Shown piece by piece: positions 28,529 through 47,478 of a stretch of 64,000 nucleotides of DNA; within the stretch, counting starts at the first letter, position 1, and each line of letters starts with the position of its first letter. The translations under genes were made by a program, and so were the position numbers. The stretch covers positions 915-64,914 of the forward strand of contig CAMEIT010000001.1 of the NCBI GenBank assembly GCA_945918795.1, written 5' to 3'. Origin of the DNA: an uncultured Clostridia bacterium. GTDB taxonomy: Bacteria; Bacillota; Clostridia; HGM11327. The notes under the pieces are model-generated. The model was not told the DNA's origin and did no database searches. It saw only the letters and a list, made by a program, of their open reading frames with translations.

Positions 28529-28682
28529 CTGTCTCGATTTACTATTACATATGGCTCCTTCCACCGCTGACGCGGTCTTCCCTCAAAGATTGAGCCGGGT
28601 TAATCTATAACTGCAAAAATTCGGTTCGCCGTAATCATCAAGTCAAATTTCCATTTTCTTTACTTTTCTCTTTAAATACTAC

Positions 28683-28868
28683 GTGCCGTATATCGGCATT
28701 GCTCCGTAAAAGCCCTAAATAAAGTCGCAAAAATCAATGCTCATCTTGCCGCCATACTCTCGGCGGGAAGATGAGCGAGCTGCAAAGCGTTTTAAAGTTT
28801 TCGGAGCTTGCGTAATAATCTCGAAGAGATTATTACTGGCTTTTTCAAAAGCGTCCAAGAAAACATCA
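28683..28868 (+). repeat. Structured intergenic repeat, family A copy 1 (bidirectional terminator module)
   Basis: Nearly identical to 45282-45448 and, inverted, to 47093-47230. It holds the hairpin ctcatcttgccgcc/ggcgggaagatgag and a second hairpin gtaataatct/agattattac followed by a T-run. Confidence 0.8.
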
Positions 28869-30441: not shown

Positions 30442-30690
30442 AAAAAAAACGGAGCGAATAAATTTCACTCCGTATACTTACGCCAACAAATAATAAGCAA
30501 AAATGCCCAATCGTTATCCGCAGTAAAAACTCTGTCCTTTTGCCTGAGAGATTTACACGGCAACATAACCGCGTATTGCCCCTTCGGCACCCGACTGACG
30601 GGTTTCTCCGGAGTGCTGTCTGCCTGCGGTTTCCGACAAAAACTGTCACCTGAGAGTGTCACTCCTACGGCTGCTTAACGCGATCTTCTG
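30442..30690 (-). promoter_or_regulatory. Glycine riboswitch (tandem aptamers) with expression-platform terminator
   Basis: Minus strand reads GGAGTGACACTCTCAGG..., then CCGGAGAAACC...GCCGAAGGGGCAA...CTCAGGCAAAAGGACAGAG. This is followed by the hairpin acggagtg...cgctccgt and a T8 run just upstream of the AGCS gene. Confidence 0.75.
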
Positions 30691-34902: not shown

Positions 34903-35715
34903 ATGAAAAAAACCATTCTGTCAGTAATGTGCGTCGCAATGCTTATTTCATCATGCGCGTGCTCATGCAACAACGCCTCTCCCGAGGCAGCCGCTGTATA
35001 TGCTGAAGCAACAGCCGCATTAAGCGAAATCGACTGCTGTTCATTTGACATATCCGTAAAAAGCCGTATTGATTTGGGAGAAAAAGCGGAAGAATTTCTC
35101 GGTTCGGCATCTTTCCTTGTCAAAGACATTTCCGCAACCGTTAAAGGGTATTTAGACTCGGACTTCATGATGTTTGACGCCTACGGAAACGTCAATCCCG
35201 TTATCGGCTCGCTTGAATTTCAGGCAACCTCAGACGGCAATGCCGCATACTTCAAACTGCCTTGGCTATCGAGAGATGTTTATTCCGTCAGCGCAGAGTA
35301 TATTGAATGTATTTTAGGCCTGCTTTTCAATATAGGCGGGAATTTTTCCGCACTTGATTCCAAAGCATTCCGCACAAGCGCCGTTCGCTATTCTTCAAAA
35401 CAAGGCATAATCAAAGCTTACAGATTCAATACAAACATCTCCTCCGACAAAGTCAATGAAATGCTTTCCGCAGCAGTCGGCAATGTCGATAAATCTTCTT
35501 ACAATGCGGCTTCCTACCTTAAATTTATCGATATAAAAAATGTCGCTTACTCTCTTACCGCTGCAAATGGTCAGGTGCTCCAACAGGCGTTCACTGTCGA
35601 CTTTGACGCACTCGGTGAACTCCGTAATTACGTGAAGTCCGCTGTCGTTTCAATCACCATTGATATTTATGATGCCAATCAAAGCAAAGCCGTCGTGTTG
35701 CCTCGCATTTCGTGA
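34903..35715 (+). CDS. Lipoprotein of unknown function
   Basis: AAGGAG sits before MKKTILSVMCVAMLISSCAC (lipobox). The annotated longer ORF start at 34696 is unlikely. Confidence 0.6.
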   Translation: MKKTILSVMCVAMLISSCACSCNNASPEAAAVYAEATAALSEIDCCSFDISVKSRIDLGEKAEEFLGSASFLVKDISATVKGYLDSDFMMFDAYGNVNPVIGSLEFQATSDGNAAYFKLPWLSRDVYSVSAEYIECILGLLFNIGGNFSALDSKAFRTSAVRYSSKQGIIKAYRFNTNISSDKVNEMLSAAVGNVDKSSYNAASYLKFIDIKNVAYSLTAANGQVLQQAFTVDFDALGELRNYVKSAVVSITIDIYDANQSKAVVLPRIS

Positions 35716-36010
35716 GCTTTTGCAGGGCTGCCGCCCCATTTCACGCAAGGGTATTTATCGGGGCTGCCACCCCATTTCACGCAAGGGTATTTAGGGTATT
35801 TATCGGGGCTGCCTCCCCGCGCCCCGCCAAATTTCTTTTCGTGAGGCTCTGCCTCACACTCCGCAAGCCGGTCTTCGCGGGGCTGCCGCCCCGCACCCCG
35901 CCAAGCCTTTGAAAAGGCTTGACCGAAACTTTTAAACACTTCGTATAAGGCAATCAGCCTCGCCGGTGATCGTCGAGGCTGATTGCCATTTGGGTTTGAG
36001 GTTTTTTCGC
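35716..36010 (+). repeat. Structured GC-rich intergenic repeat, family B copy 1
   Basis: Inverted copy at 47262-47478. Internal tandem units gggctgccgccccatttcacgcaagggtatttatc, two copies of the 25-nt GC motif ggggctgccgccccgc(a/g)ccccgcc, and the 14-bp hairpin ggcaatcagcctcg...cgaggctgattgcc. Confidence 0.8.
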
Positions 36011-38691: not shown

Positions 38692-39174
38692 TCATTGTCT
38701 ATCCCGTTTCAAAACGGCATCAAGAAGCGCCGTGCACCCCTCGAAAATATCCCGATATGCAACGTCAAACCTCTCTGTATACCACGGATCGGCAACATCG
38801 CCGCCACGGTCGGTGTAGTCCATAAGCTTATGCACTTTCCCGGCCGGATCGCCTCCGAAAATACGGAGTATATCACGGATATTGGCGCTATCCATGCCGA
38901 TGAACAGATCGTATTTGTCATAGTCACTCTTTTTCAGCTGCACCGCACGCTTACCGCCACAGGACAGCCCATGCTTTGCAAGCTCCGCCTTTGCATGTGG
39001 ATGGACGGAATTGCCTATGCCGTTCCATATTTCCGCTGTACTCGTGGCAGAGGAAGCAATCACGAATCGATCTGCCGCGCCTCGCCTTGCAACAATGTCT
39101 TTGAATATAAACTCTGCCATCGGACTGCGACAAATATTGCCGAGGCAGACGAACATGATTTTCGTCATACCCAT
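38692..39174 (-). CDS. Low-molecular-weight protein tyrosine phosphatase
   Basis: FVCLGNICRSPMAE P-loop (CX5R), 160 aa. Confidence 0.85.
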   Translation of the reverse strand: MGMTKIMFVCLGNICRSPMAEFIFKDIVARRGAADRFVIASSATSTAEIWNGIGNSVHPHAKAELAKHGLSCGGKRAVQLKKSDYDKYDLFIGMDSANIRDILRIFGGDPAGKVHKLMDYTDRGGDVADPWYTERFDVAYRDIFEGCTALLDAVLKRDRQ

Positions 39175-39579
39175 TCAAAACTCAACCTTGACAGTTTCGC
39201 TTGTGAAAGAAGTAATGATCGCGACAGCATTTTTCATATAAAAAACCTGTGTATTGCCGTCGTTTTCATCGTACATTCCGTGGAGATCGGGGTAAGCATC
39301 CAGCATGGATTTTCTTGCCTCAACGCGGTCATCCTCGACAAGCTCGCACGCAATGCGAATCCATTCTCCGTCGCAAAACGCGCATATCTCAACCTTTGGA
39401 TTCTGGGCAATCTGACGGCTGACCGGTTTGAGCTTGCCTGTCTGAATACAGAGTTTTCCTTCAAACTCGTTCACCGTCCCAAACGGACGAACTCTCGGCT
39501 GATTTCCCTCGACCGTTGCGAGGTAGTATGTTTGTGCTTTTTTCAAAAAATCATAGACTCGTTTCATTGTGTCCTCCAT
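39175..39579 (-). CDS. Pyridoxamine-5'-phosphate-oxidase-like FMN-binding protein
   Basis: YLATVEGNQPRVRPF split-barrel motif, 134 aa. Confidence 0.7.
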   Translation of the reverse strand: MEDTMKRVYDFLKKAQTYYLATVEGNQPRVRPFGTVNEFEGKLCIQTGKLKPVSRQIAQNPKVEICAFCDGEWIRIACELVEDDRVEARKSMLDAYPDLHGMYDENDGNTQVFYMKNAVAIITSFTSETVKVEF

Positions 39580-39584
39580 AGATA

Positions 39585-41723
39585 TTATATTTCTTTAATA
39601 CCCAAACTCTTTAAATATTGATACGTCCCGTCATAATACTCAGGCAGTCGCGTGCTGTCTTCCCAAAAACCACTGACAGTTTTATTTGAGTTTCCGGCAG
39701 GAACGCATATAACCATTCCGGCTCTTGCGCGGGTAAGCAGTACCCGATATGCGTTCAACATATATTTTTGCAATTCGATATTGTTTTCTGTGTTACCGGT
39801 TTGTCTCACCCATTTTGTCTGCCCATTAAATCGATAAAAACACCATTTGCCGTTTTCATATCTCATATCAGCGTCCCAAAGCAGGCAAGTGTAATCAAGC
39901 TCCAAGCCTTGAACCTGAATTTCTGTTGCGGCATCCTCAAGATAATTCGATGATCTTGTGTCAACTTTATCCTCAAGAAACCAGTGAACTGCGTTCTCGT
40001 CACCCGACGGCAGAATATGTATTCCGAGTGGCTTATACCTCGCAGATTCTTTCGTTACAAGAACTCCGGTTCGTTCTGTGCCCCTCACTTTCTTATGAAG
40101 CCATTCCTTTGCCTTGGCCATATCTCTTGTCAAAACGATCGGATAATGGTCTTTTATCTCATCATATATCCTTGATGCACTTTCATCAAAAGACAATAAT
40201 GCGTGGACAAAAGCAGAGAGCTTTTCCGCCCGATATGATCTGAGCGAAACGCCCAAATGCAAGCTTTCATCAAATGTCACATGCCTATTTTCTTTCAGAA
40301 GCTCATTAACTTTTCCTTCAGCATACTCGGCTTGGATCAATTTCGGAGAAATATAAACGTTCCAATGAGGGAATCTTTCATTTAACGCTTTAATCCATTC
40401 GGATATTCCGGCTTCTCCGGTATTTATCTCTTGCCCACCTCCCACAAGGCAGACAATAGTTGCCCAATCCTCGCGCTGATCAAGCGACCAAATCAGAAAG
40501 GCAGCTTCCGACATGGGAAAATTCGGAACCTTGAGCTTATTTCCATATGTTCCGCCTCTTTTGAGATAATCCGCAAGCCTTTTGTGTGTCCATGACCGTT
40601 GAGCCTCGTCAAATATGGCAACATGCTCAACCTCACCGAATCCGGCCTTCTCCATTTTCACGGCCTTTTCAGGATCAATTTCAAGAACTCCGTTTTCAAC
40701 AGGATTCTTGATTTTTGCCAGCATATTATCGCGGTAGCGGTGAATCATCTGAATTGATTTGCTTACCTCACGACGGGAGTCGGTGAGCTTCTTTTTCTCA
40801 TTTTTATCGCGACACCGCTTGAAGTTATCTTGCGCAAGTGCCTCTGTTAATACTGCAACAAGAGGACCATTGCCGGACAAATAAACAGCACCTTCATCTT
40901 TAACCGGTTCGTCATGTCCCTGATATGTCTGCTTGATTGCAACATCAAGCCCGACAAGTGTTTTCCCGGCACCGGGAACTCCGGTTACAAAGCAGATACT
41001 TTTCTTCTGCTTTTCCTTGCTATCCTGAATGACTTTCAAAATATATGCAATCGTTTTATCGGTGGAAACCTTGTCTGCTTCATGGCGCGTTATATTTTCA
41101 ACTGAATGGTTCTCATATAACGATTTTGCTGCTTCAATGATCGTTGGTGTGGGAGCATAGGGGCTGATAATCCAATTTGAATTAACAGGTGATTCATTCG
41201 GAAATTTCACCAGCACCTCAGAAATCAAATTTGATATGCCATTTTCTCCGGAAACCAACGGATTTACCACCCTATCATCATATACCGACATTTGAATACT
41301 GGTGGACGAATCGTTATGCTTCGTTGCAATCAATATAGGCACAATTATTCTGTCTTGACTGAACTTATGAAAATTCTTTAAGTCAAGCGCATAGTCAAGA
41401 ACTTGGTCTATATCCGATTCTAATATTTTGGATTCCCCCACTTTGAATTCGAGACAAAACACAATCCCTTTTAATAATAAAACCACGTCAATTCTTTTGC
41501 CAAGTCGTGGAATATCATACTCAAAAATAATTTGCCCATTTTCTCCTGAATAGACGGACAAAACCTGCTTCATTATGGAAATTTCAGACTTCCACGCTTC
41601 TCTTGTAGTCGTAAGAGCTTCACCGTGGTATTTATCGCATAGAAGCCCGAGAAGAGAATTACTATCCGCATAAATAAATCTATCAAAACTATCATTGAAC
41701 AAACAGCGAGTGCTATCTCTCAT
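39585..41723 (-). CDS. DUF2075-family ATPase (SF1 helicase-like) with an N-terminal PD-(D/E)xK nuclease-like domain
   Basis: N-terminal EYDIP...RIDVVLL...CLEFKV (E/D/ExK pattern). Walker A FVTGVPGAGKTLVG. Walker B VAIFDEAQR. AAAGGAG sits 8 nt before the ATG at 41723. Confidence 0.7.
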   Translation of the reverse strand: MRDSTRCLFNDSFDRFIYADSNSLLGLLCDKYHGEALTTTREAWKSEISIMKQVLSVYSGENGQIIFEYDIPRLGKRIDVVLLLKGIVFCLEFKVGESKILESDIDQVLDYALDLKNFHKFSQDRIIVPILIATKHNDSSTSIQMSVYDDRVVNPLVSGENGISNLISEVLVKFPNESPVNSNWIISPYAPTPTIIEAAKSLYENHSVENITRHEADKVSTDKTIAYILKVIQDSKEKQKKSICFVTGVPGAGKTLVGLDVAIKQTYQGHDEPVKDEGAVYLSGNGPLVAVLTEALAQDNFKRCRDKNEKKKLTDSRREVSKSIQMIHRYRDNMLAKIKNPVENGVLEIDPEKAVKMEKAGFGEVEHVAIFDEAQRSWTHKRLADYLKRGGTYGNKLKVPNFPMSEAAFLIWSLDQREDWATIVCLVGGGQEINTGEAGISEWIKALNERFPHWNVYISPKLIQAEYAEGKVNELLKENRHVTFDESLHLGVSLRSYRAEKLSAFVHALLSFDESASRIYDEIKDHYPIVLTRDMAKAKEWLHKKVRGTERTGVLVTKESARYKPLGIHILPSGDENAVHWFLEDKVDTRSSNYLEDAATEIQVQGLELDYTCLLWDADMRYENGKWCFYRFNGQTKWVRQTGNTENNIELQKYMLNAYRVLLTRARAGMVICVPAGNSNKTVSGFWEDSTRLPEYYDGTYQYLKSLGIKEI

Positions 41724-41768
41724 TGGAACTACTCCTTTCAACCGCATATTTCCCGGGACTTATCCTTC

Positions 41769-41930
41769 TATCGCCGGTTCTCAGATTTATCCGGTACAAT
41801 CTCAATAATATCATTCATCGTGCAACCGAGTGCCGTACATATTTTAACCAAAACATCGCTTGAAACAGTTGCGCCGTCTTTTTTCATCTTTGCGAGAGTT
41901 GCGGGACTGATTACTATGGAGCAATAAATA
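41769..41930 (-). pseudogene. Truncated XRE-family HTH regulator (only the C-terminal part of the HTH remains)
   Basis: The minus-strand frame reads ...ISPATLAKMKKDGATVSSDVLVKICTALGCTMNDIIEIVPDKSENRR*. An in-frame stop lies immediately upstream, and the first HTH helix is absent. The remnant abuts the 3' end of the 984-aa gene. Confidence 0.55.
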
Positions 41931-41941
41931 TTTTAAATAAA

Positions 41942-44896
41942 CTATCTCTTATCACGATGTGAACATTTATAGCATACACCAAGATTAACGTGATTTACTC
42001 CACCGTATGATACAAAATTAGCCTCTTGATTTATCTCACCGCACAGCTCACACTGAATCCACCTTCTGCCTAATGAATCGCGAATCTGGTATTCTTGCTG
42101 AGTAAACTTATCCTTAACTTCATTATAACCGTTAATACAACGCAACTCAGCAATTTGTTCTTGTCGTGCTTGCTCAATTTCAAGAGCTTTCTCGCGCTCT
42201 TTTCTTAATTTCTCTTGCCGACGAAGATATTTTTCTCGCGATATGCGGTCCTGCTCTGCACATCTATACATACTATCTATACGTTTTTGTTCTTGTTCTT
42301 CGCATACTCGTCTATGTTTCTCTTCCGACTCTTTTTCTCGCATAATTTTATATTCCGGAAAAAGTTCGTCTATAAAAGTGCTTTCCATTCCTTTTATACC
42401 AAATAGACTCAAATTGTTTTTTGCTCGCGTAATGCCAACGTAAAACAATCGTCTTTCTTCTTGCTCACCATCCGCATTATCCTTGGAACGACTAAATATA
42501 TTTGGTCTTGATGATGGGAAACGACCGTCATACACATCTACCATATAAACGCTATCGTATTCCAGGCCTTTGCTTGAGTGGATAGTTGAAAGAATTACAG
42601 CATTATTTGCTTTGGAGAAAAAATCTTGCTGTATTAATTTTTCCAGTTCTGCAAGTCTATTCAAGAACTTTTGTATATCAGGCTCTTGTTTTGAAAGAAT
42701 TTGGAGGATCTCAATCTTTCCGCTATCAAGATGATTATTTTTCACGTATTCCCCATATCCATTATCCATTAAAATTGAAATCGCGTCCGAAGCTTTGGCT
42801 TTCCCAACTCTTCCCATTACGCTTCTGAAATTATCAGCTATATTTTTCTGACGTTTTTTAAGATATTGCATCTGACCTTCAACAGCATCATAAACAGACA
42901 TGTGTTTATATTTGCAATTCTTAAGCACATACTCTTTTTGCTGGCTCTTAAGATATAGGATACCCTTATTGCATATTTTATCAAACGATTCAGCGTCATT
43001 TTCATTCAATGCAAGCGAGAGATACGCTATTATTTCCTTAACTACTCGATTCGCAAAAAAATTCATTTCGGGCTTACGTAGCCTAAAAGGAACGCCATTC
43101 CTTAAAAACAGATCAATAAGAACAACGGAGCTCTCATTATCTCGATATAGAAATGCAGTTTCTCTATCCGCGGTCTTTGCTATTTCAAGCAAGCGTGTGT
43201 ACTGCTTTTCTCTTGAGTCAACCTGTTCTAAAAACACTGCTTCGCCATCACCGCGCTCGGCTGTCATATTTTTCTCATAGCGGCCTTTATTATGTGAAAT
43301 AAATGATTGCGCCTTATCAACAATTTGCCTTGTTGATCGATAATTGCGCTCCATTCGAAGAATATATGGGTTAAGATAATCATATTTGAAATTCAATAAC
43401 GCCTTTGGGTATGCTGCACGGAAACCATATATACTTTGATCTTCGTCGCCCACCATAAAGATATTATTTTCTTTGGCGAGAATCTTAATAATCTCGTGCT
43501 GGATTTTGGATGTGTCCTGAGCCTCATCCACACAAATGTATTTATAGCGTTCTCTCAACGCGGATGTAATTTCATCATCTTTTTTTAAAATCCAAAGAGC
43601 AAATACCATTTGGTCGTCAAAATCCATTTGGCATTTCTCTTGCAGTGACTTCTTATAAGTTTCATACATTGCATTCAAATGTGGGTATTCGGTTTCTATC
43701 TCACTGATTTGCTCTTTCGTGAGCATCATATTTTTTATGTATGTGATAGCAGTGGAAAGCTCAAGAATATCATTCTCAGTCGCATATTCACCATAGTGTT
43801 GCTTAAATATTTCCCCAAGCAAACGCCGTCTTTCATCGCCTTGAATCTGTTTTCTTCGTTGTTTATGGACTTTACTACAATAGTCCACATACACTTTAAG
43901 CGCCAAACTGTTAATTGTACGGAAATCAATTTGCTTACCAAATTTATCACCGAATTGGGCAGAAAACCTGTTCTCCATCTCCTTTGCTGCTGCAGTATTA
44001 TACGTAATGGCAAGAATATTTTCAGGCGCAATGTTTTTATTGAGCACCATGTGACCCAAGCGTTCAACAAGCACTGTGGTTTTTCCCGAGCCCGGGACTG
44101 CCAATAATAGATTTGATCCCTCAACGGCAAGCAAAGCTCGTTCCTGTTGCTTATTAAGGTTAATATGATATTTTTCCTTAAATGAGCAATACTGCTCATT
44201 GTTTTCAATATCTTCTCTACACGGTGGCAAGCACTGTCCATTTTTCAAGCCTATATAAGTCAGAAAATCGTTTTTGCTGATAAAACCGGACGTGTAAAAG
44301 CATTCAAACCCATCTGCAGAAACATCGGTTACTCTTACTATGCATGCGTCGGAATCTGATTGTAGCTGAAAGAAAAGATCTATACAACCACTTTGAATAT
44401 CATAATTATTAAATGCTTTTTTAGGATTCTGCCAATGGAATTCCAGTCTACCGCTTGTTTCTTTGCAAACCAGTTGATCTTCTAACAGATCAGATAAATC
44501 AAATAGCCATATGACTTTGTTACCTAAATTAAAATAGAAATTGTTTCTATCGTCAAAATCTTTCACCGACATTATACTATGCTGAAACTCAATAACAGTG
44601 CGATCAATCATGACATCTGCTCGATGTTTTGTATCTCCCAGAGATAGTTTTACTTCCTGATTTTCTTTAGGAAACAAAGACTGCCATTCGTTATGCCAGG
44701 GAGATATATCATAACTATGGCTACGTTCCCAAGTATCAGAGCAAATGTGATTTTGCTTATGTGCAAAATGGTGTTGACGAATTTCACCTTTTTTCATAAT
44801 CAGAGGTGCTCCACAGTAGGGGCAATAATATTCTTGATTCCCGTGCGTATCCTCAATATGAACTCGATTATCGTTGTAATCAATTGCAAATAACAT
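41942..44896 (-). CDS. Fusion protein: CoiA-like zinc-ribbon nuclease domain, UvrD/PcrA-like SF1 helicase, coiled coil, and a C-terminal zinc ribbon
   Basis: N-terminal YYCPYCGAPL...HHFAHK...HRADVMIDRTVIEFQH (CoiA-like). Helicase motifs AVPGSGKTT, CVDEAQD, IYGFR, NYRST, TIHSSKGLEYD and VGITRAK. The C-terminus has a CxxC...CxxC pattern. An extended -10 (TGGTATAAT) lies upstream. Confidence 0.75.
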   Translation of the reverse strand: MLFAIDYNDNRVHIEDTHGNQEYYCPYCGAPLIMKKGEIRQHHFAHKQNHICSDTWERSHSYDISPWHNEWQSLFPKENQEVKLSLGDTKHRADVMIDRTVIEFQHSIMSVKDFDDRNNFYFNLGNKVIWLFDLSDLLEDQLVCKETSGRLEFHWQNPKKAFNNYDIQSGCIDLFFQLQSDSDACIVRVTDVSADGFECFYTSGFISKNDFLTYIGLKNGQCLPPCREDIENNEQYCSFKEKYHINLNKQQERALLAVEGSNLLLAVPGSGKTTVLVERLGHMVLNKNIAPENILAITYNTAAAKEMENRFSAQFGDKFGKQIDFRTINSLALKVYVDYCSKVHKQRRKQIQGDERRRLLGEIFKQHYGEYATENDILELSTAITYIKNMMLTKEQISEIETEYPHLNAMYETYKKSLQEKCQMDFDDQMVFALWILKKDDEITSALRERYKYICVDEAQDTSKIQHEIIKILAKENNIFMVGDEDQSIYGFRAAYPKALLNFKYDYLNPYILRMERNYRSTRQIVDKAQSFISHNKGRYEKNMTAERGDGEAVFLEQVDSREKQYTRLLEIAKTADRETAFLYRDNESSVVLIDLFLRNGVPFRLRKPEMNFFANRVVKEIIAYLSLALNENDAESFDKICNKGILYLKSQQKEYVLKNCKYKHMSVYDAVEGQMQYLKKRQKNIADNFRSVMGRVGKAKASDAISILMDNGYGEYVKNNHLDSGKIEILQILSKQEPDIQKFLNRLAELEKLIQQDFFSKANNAVILSTIHSSKGLEYDSVYMVDVYDGRFPSSRPNIFSRSKDNADGEQEERRLFYVGITRAKNNLSLFGIKGMESTFIDELFPEYKIMREKESEEKHRRVCEEQEQKRIDSMYRCAEQDRISREKYLRRQEKLRKEREKALEIEQARQEQIAELRCINGYNEVKDKFTQQEYQIRDSLGRRWIQCELCGEINQEANFVSYGGVNHVNLGVCYKCSHRDKR

Positions 44897-45017
44897 ATAA
44901 GCTTGCCCCTTTCTTAATGATCATTTTTATTATACCATAAATTTTCTATATTTTTTACAAGATTTAATAAATATAAAGGTGACAAATAACTCTGCCACCT
45001 TATCTTTGCTTCCTGCG

Positions 45018-45217
45018 AGGTAAATATTACTCCGTTGCCGTCATTCTCCGCTCACGGTCTCGCCTTTCCAGTCTATGATGCCGCCGAACTCCACAAAGCA
45101 CACCAAGCAAACGACCGTGCTGTGATGCAGGCATATGGGTTTGATGTCAAGACAATGACGGAAAGCAGTTGTGTTGCGGAGCTTATGAAGATGTATCAAA
45201 AGTTAGTGGGATGTTGA
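45018..45217 (+). pseudogene. C-terminal remnant of an N6-adenine DNA methyltransferase / type IIG-ISP (MmeI- or PglX-like) enzyme
   Basis: ...VYDAAELHKAHQANDRAVMQAYGFD...ELMKMYQKLV resembles the conserved C-terminal tail of these methyltransferases. A stop codon lies immediately upstream, so only about 66 codons survive. Confidence 0.45.
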
Positions 45218-45281: not shown

Positions 45282-45448
45282 GTGCCGTAAAAAAACTTAA
45301 ATAGTGTCGCAAAAATAAATGCTCATCTTTTCGTCATACTCTCGACGAAAAGATGAGCGAGCTGCAAAGCGTCTTCAAGTTTTCGGGCTTAAGTAATAAT
45401 CGCAAAGATATTATTACTTACTTTTCAAAAAGCGCCCAAGAAAAATCA
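45282..45448 (+). repeat. Family A repeat, copy 2
   Basis: Aligns base-for-base with 28683-28868. Compensatory changes sit in the hairpin (ttcgtc/gacgaa here versus gccgcc/ggcggg in copy 1). Confidence 0.8.
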
Positions 45449-47092: not shown

Positions 47093-47230
47093 TTTTGGAC
47101 GCTTTTGAAAAGCGTCCAAACCCGAAAACTTTAAAACGCTTTGCGGCTCCTCATCTCCTTGCCAAGAGTACGGCTTCGGAGATGAGGATTTACTTTTGCG
47201 ACGTTATTTAAGGTTTTTACGGCAAAATAT
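47093..47230 (-). repeat. Family A repeat, copy 3 (inverted)
   Basis: Reverse complement matches copies 1 and 2. Hairpins cctcatctcc...ggagatgagg and ggacgcttttgaaaagcgtcc. Confidence 0.75.
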
Positions 47231-47261
47231 AAATATACAGCACATTTCCATTGAAAAAGAA

Positions 47262-47478
47262 ACGAAAACCAAATGGCAATCCGACTCGACGACCACCGGC
47301 GAGGCTGATTGCCAACCACAAAGTGTTTTAAAGTTTCGCTCAAGCCTTTTCAAAGGCTTGCGGAGTGTGAGGCAGAGCCTCACGAAGAAAAGCTTAGCGG
47401 GGCGCGGGGCGGGGCGGCAGCCCCGAGAGGACGGCTTGCGGAGTGTGGGGCAGAGCCCCACAAAATGATAAAAATGTT
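47262..47478 (-). repeat. Family B repeat, copy 2 (inverted relative to 35716-36010)
   Basis: Reverse complement aligns to 35815-36000, including gtgaggcagagcctcac and the GC-rich ggggcggcagcccc motif. Confidence 0.8.

Follow-up and report, generated by a model that had tools for sequence, protein, structure and literature searches.

A probable stand-alone Nhi-like (PDC-S41) defence gene behind a truncated XRE regulator in an uncultured Clostridia bacterium

The stretch of DNA analysed here – 64,000 nucleotides (nt) from an uncultured Clostridia bacterium, referred to throughout as the window – carries on its minus strand a gene for a 712-aa protein with a DUF2075 ATPase core. What is left of a small XRE regulator gene lies directly upstream, preceded by a gene for a 984-aa protein with CoiA and UvrD domains, and genes for a PNPOx-family protein and a low-molecular-weight phosphotyrosine phosphatase (LMW-PTP) follow downstream (Table 1). 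All coordinates are those of the window, and residue numbers follow the 712-aa protein unless the 720-aa form is named. Counted from its first ATG, the minus-strand open reading frame (ORF; 39585..41747) specifies 720 aa, a form that an exact look-up did not find on record. Gene callers, in identical metagenome contigs, start the product at Met9 to give the 712-aa form (39585..41723), and an AAGGAG ribosome-binding site is located 8 nt 5′ of that start codon. The ORF and every catalytic motif in it are intact.

The larger part of the protein matches PF09848 (SLFN-g3_helicase, formerly DUF2075) over the whole profile (aa 249-683 of the 720-aa form, E=3.9e-64). A full-length AlphaFold model built on 64 diverse relatives (pLDDT 90, pTM 0.87) finds its best Foldseek matches in human SLFN11 and SLFN14, followed by RecD, Upf1 and nsp13, and in this model the ATPase half is a superfamily 1 (SF1) helicase fold. 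A sequence search of the PDB found no solved relative of the 712-aa protein, with similarity to SLFN11 and SLFN5 at the level of the P-loop only; profile similarity to SLFN11 is likewise limited to the P-loop region (E ~1e-3), and there were zero matches in NCBIfam and PHROGs. The motifs expected of such an ATPase are invariant among 64 distant relatives, 33-65% identical to the window protein, and comprise Walker A (G248-T255), Walker B (D372-E373, within DEAQ), Q375, R376, and the arginines R660, R665 and R667 (arginine fingers).

The N-terminal domain is recognised through its predicted structure. Residues 1-248 match neither Mrr_cat nor any other nuclease family in Pfam, even at E<=10. In the AlphaFold model, residues 10-185 are confidently placed (pLDDT ~90) around an alpha-beta-beta-beta-alpha-beta core, and the top 16 Foldseek matches in the PDB include Cdn1, McrC, R.BspD6I, Can2, Can1 (6sce) and EcoO109I – those that we recognised by name, and which we take to be PD-(D/E)xK nucleases – with modest E-values of 4.5e-4 to 0.03. 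The nuclease pattern E...D...ExK corresponds to E68, D79 and E92-F-K94; none of the same 64 relatives departs from E68, E92 or K94, and at least 90% keep D79. On the model, this domain is a PD-(D/E)xK nuclease fold. An earlier note on this DNA, made from the letters alone, had described a PD-(D/E)xK-like N-terminus joined to a DUF2075 core, and that architecture is borne out; of the two profiles it had looked to, PF09848 was found, and a Mrr_cat assignment cannot be claimed. Its description of the protein as Schlafen-related holds for the helicase half, which is shared with Schlafen group 3 (human SLFN11, SLFN14 and SLFN5), and fails for the other half: the AlbA_2 RNase domain (PF04326), the tRNA-cleaving nuclease of the Schlafens, was not found by Pfam in the DUF2075 protein, which is instead predicted to carry a DNA-nuclease fold of the PD-(D/E)xK type at its N-terminus.

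At full length the protein belongs to the PADLOC candidate family PDC-S41 (PDLC05014, E=1.1e-244), with aa 14-720 of the 720-aa form aligned to profile positions 3-653 of 657. The same profile is matched by all 64 of the distant relatives, and the wider family numbers 816 representatives at E<1e-30, with identity reaching down to 33%. A literature search found 'PDC-S41' named in no paper text. The supplement of Millman et al. (2022) lists a 611-aa protein of Bacillus cereus FSL H8-0482 as SG141, 'Nhi-like' (status 'v', 'Verified'), and the authors describe the Nhi-like architecture as an N-terminal nuclease plus DUF2075. Our comparison covers the first 399 residues of this protein (gene 2729017301), which match PDC-S41 (E=8.8e-76) and align by BLASTP to aa 37-461 of the window protein (E=6e-34, 26% identical), the alignment pairing E-D-ExK, Walker A and DEAQ of one protein with those of the other. 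Judged by this shared profile, the family of the window protein includes an experimentally validated anti-phage member and is hence already described, not undescribed as the earlier note had thought possible. The two proteins share the nuclease plus DUF2075 plan and the single-gene organization. They differ in length, with most of the additional residues of the window protein in a gapped stretch (query aa 297-363) between Walker A and Walker B, and the window protein, unlike the B. cereus protein, is part of a much more strongly conserved clade from gut and rumen, in which an XRE gene often lies ahead and a Nudix gene behind. A weaker likeness, over the nuclease and Walker A region, is to AbiO, a lactococcal abortive infection protein (PADLOC PDLC02350; E=0.0028 for the window protein, with 23 of the 64 relatives matching weakly at a best E=2.8e-9). 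AbiO is a separate profile family of ~470 positions with no full-length match to the window protein.

The genomic surroundings of the relatives point to defence. We compared 80 loci from GTDB species genomes (L010-L089), each encoding a DUF2075 protein 76-86% identical to that of the window. Among the 144 immediate neighbours of these genes PADLOC recognised PDC-S07 Nudix (18), SoFic (6), PDC-S01 (4), type IV restriction endonucleases (4), PbeA (4), type I restriction endonucleases (4) and JetA (2), in agreement with the association with defence islands proposed earlier, and McrBC adjoins distant plasmid relatives. The DUF2075 relatives are patchily distributed in differing genomic contexts with no shared synteny. 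Plasmid and phage collections contain distant relatives only (<=44% identical); in viral contigs, close-relative scans for the DUF2075 and 984-aa genes found nothing, and a profile scan found only 10 loci, at 38-45% identity.

Two sister lineages, found through a downstream aldo-keto reductase that is 91-92% identical, have different contents in the same slot; a search of JGI metagenomes for the 187-aa protein of the left flank found nothing. In the first (L119, 1500-2916), the XRE gene is followed by a frameshifted remnant of the first ~39 DUF2075 codons, then LMW-PTP, Nudix and the remaining genes as far as the reductase. In the second (L120, 4692-8215), an orthologous XRE gene (90% identical) is followed by a C5-methylase, a HaeIII endonuclease (PF09556, E=2e-140), a second C5-methylase, and then this same Nudix with other genes that extend to the reductase. 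In close relatives the slot is thus occupied by a Nhi-like gene, a restriction-modification system or a scar, and the DUF2075 gene is exchangeable defence cargo; one small regulator appears to front interchangeable cargo. Presence of the gene irrespective of the 984-aa neighbour, with a base composition near that of the core genome, had been named beforehand as a sign of a housekeeping role. Both were found, and they speak against a two-gene reading of the locus; a housekeeping role does not follow, because a restriction-modification system or a deletion remnant occupies the same slot in sister lineages.

On the basis of both folds, the conservation of the active sites, the shared profile family, the defence neighbours and the slot exchange, we read the DUF2075 gene as a stand-alone Nhi-like (PDC-S41) defence enzyme in which a PD-(D/E)xK nuclease is fused to an SF1 helicase-like ATPase, and give this reading a probability of about 0.8. 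Phage protection is known for the B. cereus member and is proposed for the window protein by analogy. The same plan – a restriction-endonuclease-like N-terminus and a DUF2075 SF1 helicase in a single protein – is found in Nhi of Staphylococcus epidermidis, which is activated through phage SSB and degrades phage replication intermediates (Bari et al. 2022); this behaviour is literature on Nhi, and for the window protein it serves as an analogy only. If the window protein acts similarly, the ATPase motor would load on and track along phage DNA, probably single-stranded DNA or replication intermediates, the PD-(D/E)xK domain would degrade the DNA so engaged, and accumulation of phage DNA would be blocked with no partner protein needed. 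The specific substrate and trigger are perhaps as proposed, a suggestion drawn from Nhi to which we give somewhat less than an even chance.

Several observations weigh against the defence reading. The verified relative, at just 26% identity, is distant and ~100 residues shorter; the PADLOC Nhi model (PDLC02372) has no match to the window protein at E<=0.01 (22 of the 64 family members match it weakly, with a best E=1.3e-8), and the mechanism is borrowed from Nhi. In the supplement of Millman et al. (2022), a 'pyrophosphatase + DUF2075' pair (SG192) has status 'x', no defence, and a second such pair (SG193) failed cloning. The native promoter of the DUF2075 gene has been lost in this strain, and the G+C content of the gene (0.417) is near that of the window (0.434). 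A further concern is conservation, since 76-86% protein identity across phyla is unusual for a defence gene. Record labels in the gut and rumen clade include Clostridia, Erysipelotrichaceae, Elusimicrobiaceae, Alphaproteobacteria, Prevotellaceae, Spirochaetales, Anaerolineaceae and Methanobrevibacter; the labels of metagenome-assembled genomes can be wrong, and the flanks, independently of the labels, span G+C contents of 0.27-0.62. The gene itself ranges from 0.30 to 0.545 and tracks its host (r=0.77). Synonymous sites are saturated (pS 0.76-0.94) and pN is low (0.085-0.147); on this evidence the transfers are ancient, and the protein is under constraint of a strength that is unusual among immune genes. 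Beyond this clade, the family as a whole is ordinary in its conservation. Recent horizontal transfer was considered as the source of the cross-phylum identity and rejected, because synonymous sites are saturated and the G+C content of the gene is adapted to each host.

Contigs of the same species fall into two alleles, with the 984-aa gene (L001-L009) and without it (L091-L094 and L096), and in the latter the regulator gene is complete. These have the order left flank, 536 bp, intact 74-aa XRE gene, DUF2075 gene, PNPOx. In the window, a segment of 3135 bp (41913-45047) stands in place of the 536 bp and has thereby removed the XRE promoter along with XRE codons 1-27; homology to the intact XRE allele resumes at position 41912. 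The regulator reported earlier as broken is therefore a truncated XRE gene with 47 of 74 codons left, whose product reads "ISPATLAKMKKDGATVSSDVLVKICTALGCTMNDIIEIVPDKSENRR". Since lost codons are not regained, the allele with the complete XRE represents the earlier state of this gene.

Intact orthologues of the regulator match HTH_26 in Pfam (E=1e-19), and a small intact XRE gene is located directly upstream of the DUF2075 gene in ~13-15 of the 80 relatives. The XRE-headed relatives have a conserved arrangement in common, in which a -35 box and an extended -10 box are followed by 40 nt of leader, with GAGGTG as the ribosome-binding site. In an intact allele (L091, 2966-2979) the XRE promoter has a perfect 14-bp palindrome, TATAGTATACTATA, over its -10 box. 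Other contigs of the species carry TGTAGTATACTACA and TAGTATACTA as variants of this palindrome, which the window lacks; it is probably the operator. In the normal state, the enzyme would belong to a small operon headed by the 74-aa XRE repressor, which would bind over the -10 box and hold the operon low until needed. Restriction-modification cassettes controlled by C-proteins similarly have a small XRE/HTH_3 gene at the operon head; unlike these, the cargo at the window locus is a nuclease-helicase with no methylase, and the XRE operator and its logic are putative. RNA elements were considered within the locus and rejected, as Rfam and tRNA scans were empty there. Elsewhere in the window the minus strand carries two tandem cyclic di-GMP-I riboswitch aptamers (54637-54720 and 54773-54856; 63.7 and 59.9 bits), upstream of minus-strand genes beginning with the 54042-54644 ORF, and a glycine riboswitch aptamer (30522-30621; 59.2 bits).

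In the window, the 3.1-kb CoiA-UvrD segment has taken the place of the promoter and of the start of the XRE gene, and the enzyme would now either depend on read-through transcription out of the inserted gene, escaping XRE control, or be poorly expressed. On the minus strand between the two genes (41748-41941) we found neither a promoter-like nor a terminator-like site; expression of the DUF2075 gene, if any, would therefore come by read-through from the 984-aa gene. The second outcome raises the question of whether the gene is a silenced passenger nearing loss, unexpressed since its promoter was removed and no longer functional in this strain. Removal of the native promoter and of the 5′ end of the regulator fits this account, as do the missing promoter-like site, the reduction to 39 codons in one sister lineage, and other debris at the locus (the MmeI_C and rhodanese remnants in Table 1). 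We nevertheless consider it unlikely, because the ORF is intact, all catalytic residues are kept, and its DNA is 99.6% identical to that of the XRE-intact allele. In addition, the inserted gene is co-oriented, has, on inspection of the sequence by eye, a promoter-like region, and is followed by no terminator, which makes read-through plausible. The exact 984-aa protein of the window is present in nine contigs; all six that reach far enough have the DUF2075 gene directly downstream, complete (711-712 aa) in five. The suggestion that the system might be decayed is accordingly confined to its regulator, the only part that is broken.

Behind the DUF2075 gene, the PNPOx and LMW-PTP genes are probably co-transcribed with it, with no terminator-like site found on the minus strand through this region down to 39000. 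The earlier description of the flanking genes as housekeeping is doubtful, as LMW-PTP and PNPOx recur beside relatives in other species: an LMW-PTP gene (82% identical) lies directly behind the DUF2075 homolog in L010, and PNPOx is within 8 kb of it in L025, L032, L044, L069 and L075. In 24 of the 80 loci, a Nudix gene starts -3 to +47 nt from the DUF2075 stop codon, including cases where the Nudix proteins are just 32-37% identical; the window has no Nudix gene, and PNPOx and LMW-PTP stand in its place. The Nudix protein is a NUDIX_4 hydrolase of 125-130 aa (e.g. L011, 10124-10510) and matches the PADLOC candidate PDC-S07 (best E=1.5e-49). Pairing of DUF2075 with nucleotide pyrophosphatases recurs outside the gut and rumen clade, in SG192 and SG193, where the DUF2075 protein is nearer to Nhi and AbiO than to PDC-S41. 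The Nudix gene may belong to the flank of the slot and not be a partner, because the sister lineage with the restriction-modification system has the same Nudix beside different cargo. A more elaborate scheme is that the clade is the effector of a portable XRE – nuclease-helicase – Nudix module (PDC-S41 plus PDC-S07), with its constraint reflecting a universally conserved target or signal, and that the CoiA-UvrD insertion has converted it from regulated to constitutive read-through expression; we offer this speculatively, at long odds.

The same genes could also be viewed as cellular. In this alternative, the DUF2075 protein would be a DNA-maintenance enzyme for damaged or stalled DNA, working alongside enzymes of nucleotide sanitising and stress (MutT-like Nudix, PNPOx-family and LMW-PTP). 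The very strong purifying selection, a G+C content that follows the host and, in the window, differs little from that of the core, the presence of the gene in all same-species contigs long enough to tell, and a Nudix gene that stays directly downstream even when its own sequence has diverged are what such a role would lead one to find. Set against these are the patchy distribution without shared synteny, the many defence genes among the neighbours, the replacement by restriction-modification genes or deletion in sister lineages, the verified anti-phage protein in the family, and the standing of the Nudix family itself as a defence candidate. We regard a maintenance role as decidedly improbable.

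The 984-aa protein combines CoiA_N, CoiA_nuc, UvrD-helicase and UvrD_C domains, and its C-terminus, read by eye from the translation, has a charged stretch and a terminal CxxC...CxxC Zn-ribbon. Among the 80 loci its gene adjoins the DUF2075 gene in none, and the sole nearby case is a 66% homolog 5 kb downstream (L015); three relatives that are 71-84% identical (L100, L103 and L104) are solitary, in unrelated contexts, with no DUF2075 neighbour. The gene has a G+C content of 0.373 (~0.37 for the segment 41913-45047), compared with 0.417 for the DUF2075 gene. The junction cuts through the XRE gene, and the juxtaposition is therefore secondary; by these sequence comparisons the 984-aa segment is an independent insertion that lies outside the DUF2075 unit. 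That the two proteins form one two-gene nuclease-ATPase defence system, as the earlier note proposed, and follow a Gabija-like logic is very improbable in spite of their common strand, the 194-nt gap with no terminator-like site, the union of a nuclease and an SF1 helicase in both genes, and two other places where the families lie a few kb apart (L015, and L103, where 2.4 kb separate a 984-aa homolog from a restriction-modification module headed by XRE), given the zero adjacency, the five same-species contigs that carry XRE and DUF2075 without the 984-aa gene, the severed regulator, the lower G+C content and the solitary relatives.

The 984-aa family is itself widespread (~950-1000 aa, with >100 relatives that are 59-100% identical among the matches listed). 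PADLOC returned generic GajB and DRT-helicase matches to the 984-aa protein and no specific model. The homolog in L103 is near a LlaJI-type restriction gene as well as the XRE-M-M-R module, and on an Exiguobacterium plasmid a CoiA-family gene is beside McrBC; the 984-aa CoiA-UvrD gene may be an uncatalogued defence gene. A conserved 45-aa ORF (M.YS.F.PNVVKHV.KPVFE...ADV.EAVQTPK.PKKPVK) is located ~115-130 nt 3′ of the CoiA-UvrD homologs in L100 (11058-11195) and L103 (11085-11222), and has no counterpart in the window.

The left junction of the inserted segment falls inside a remnant of a rhodanese 3′ end, and in L100 the same rhodanese sequence is found immediately 5′ of the 984-aa homolog, which suggests that the segment arrived by recombination with DNA carrying a rhodanese – CoiA-UvrD neighbourhood. 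No repeats were seen by eye at the two segment junctions. A mobile cassette with defined ends was rejected, as the junctions are without repeats and the repeats nearby belong to a scattered intergenic family. These are GC-rich and hairpin-forming, at 28626-28819, 35700-36010, 45283-45390 and 47118-47468, and one pair has 96-nt inverted arms (35902-35997 and 47265-47360, 89% complementary) that bracket 11.3 kb with the whole locus. The ORF of the MmeI-type gene end beside the left junction is longer in the L091 allele (95 aa).

Table 1. Features at the DUF2075 locus of the 64,000-nt window
Feature	Position	Strand	Evidence or remark
LMW-PTP gene	38692-39174	-	Pfam
PNPOx-family gene	39175-39579	-	Starts 5 nt past DUF2075 stop; Pfam
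Nhi-like / PDC-S41 gene, 712 aa	39585..41723	-	ORF, gene calls, PADLOC PDC-S41, full-length AlphaFold model
Predicted DUF2075 / Schlafen-group-3 SF1 helicase-like ATPase, aa 241-683	39675..41003	-	PF09848, family-invariant motifs, Foldseek
Predicted N-terminal PD-(D/E)xK nuclease domain, aa 1-185	41169..41723	-	AlphaFold, Foldseek, residue conservation
Codons of putative catalytic E68, D79, E92, K94	~41442-41522	-	
XRE (HTH_26/HTH_3) gene 3′ remnant, C-terminal 47 codons	41768..41912	-	Comparison with intact 74-aa gene of L091-L094 and L096
Strain-specific 3135-bp segment, 984-aa gene and its promoter region	41913..45047	-	Absent from L091-type alleles
984-aa gene: CoiA_N, CoiA_nuc, UvrD-helicase, UvrD_C	41942..44896	-	Pfam
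Rhodanese 3′-end remnant, left junction	44998-45094	-	85-87% identical to L100 7690-7785 and L119 6384-6482
MmeI-type (type IIG) restriction-methylase gene, last ~60 codons	45035-45217	+	MmeI_C E=2.9e-6 (Pfam); REase_MTase_IIG E=3.6e-10 (PADLOC)

The locus is a natural example of defence-gene turnover, in which one XRE-headed slot has three contents in close relatives, and in this strain the regulator itself has been hit by a second helicase-nuclease gene. Two catalogue entries are also brought together, as the PADLOC candidate PDC-S41 contains the verified Nhi-like protein, and PDC-S41 matches in gut and rumen surveys can therefore be read as members of a validated family.

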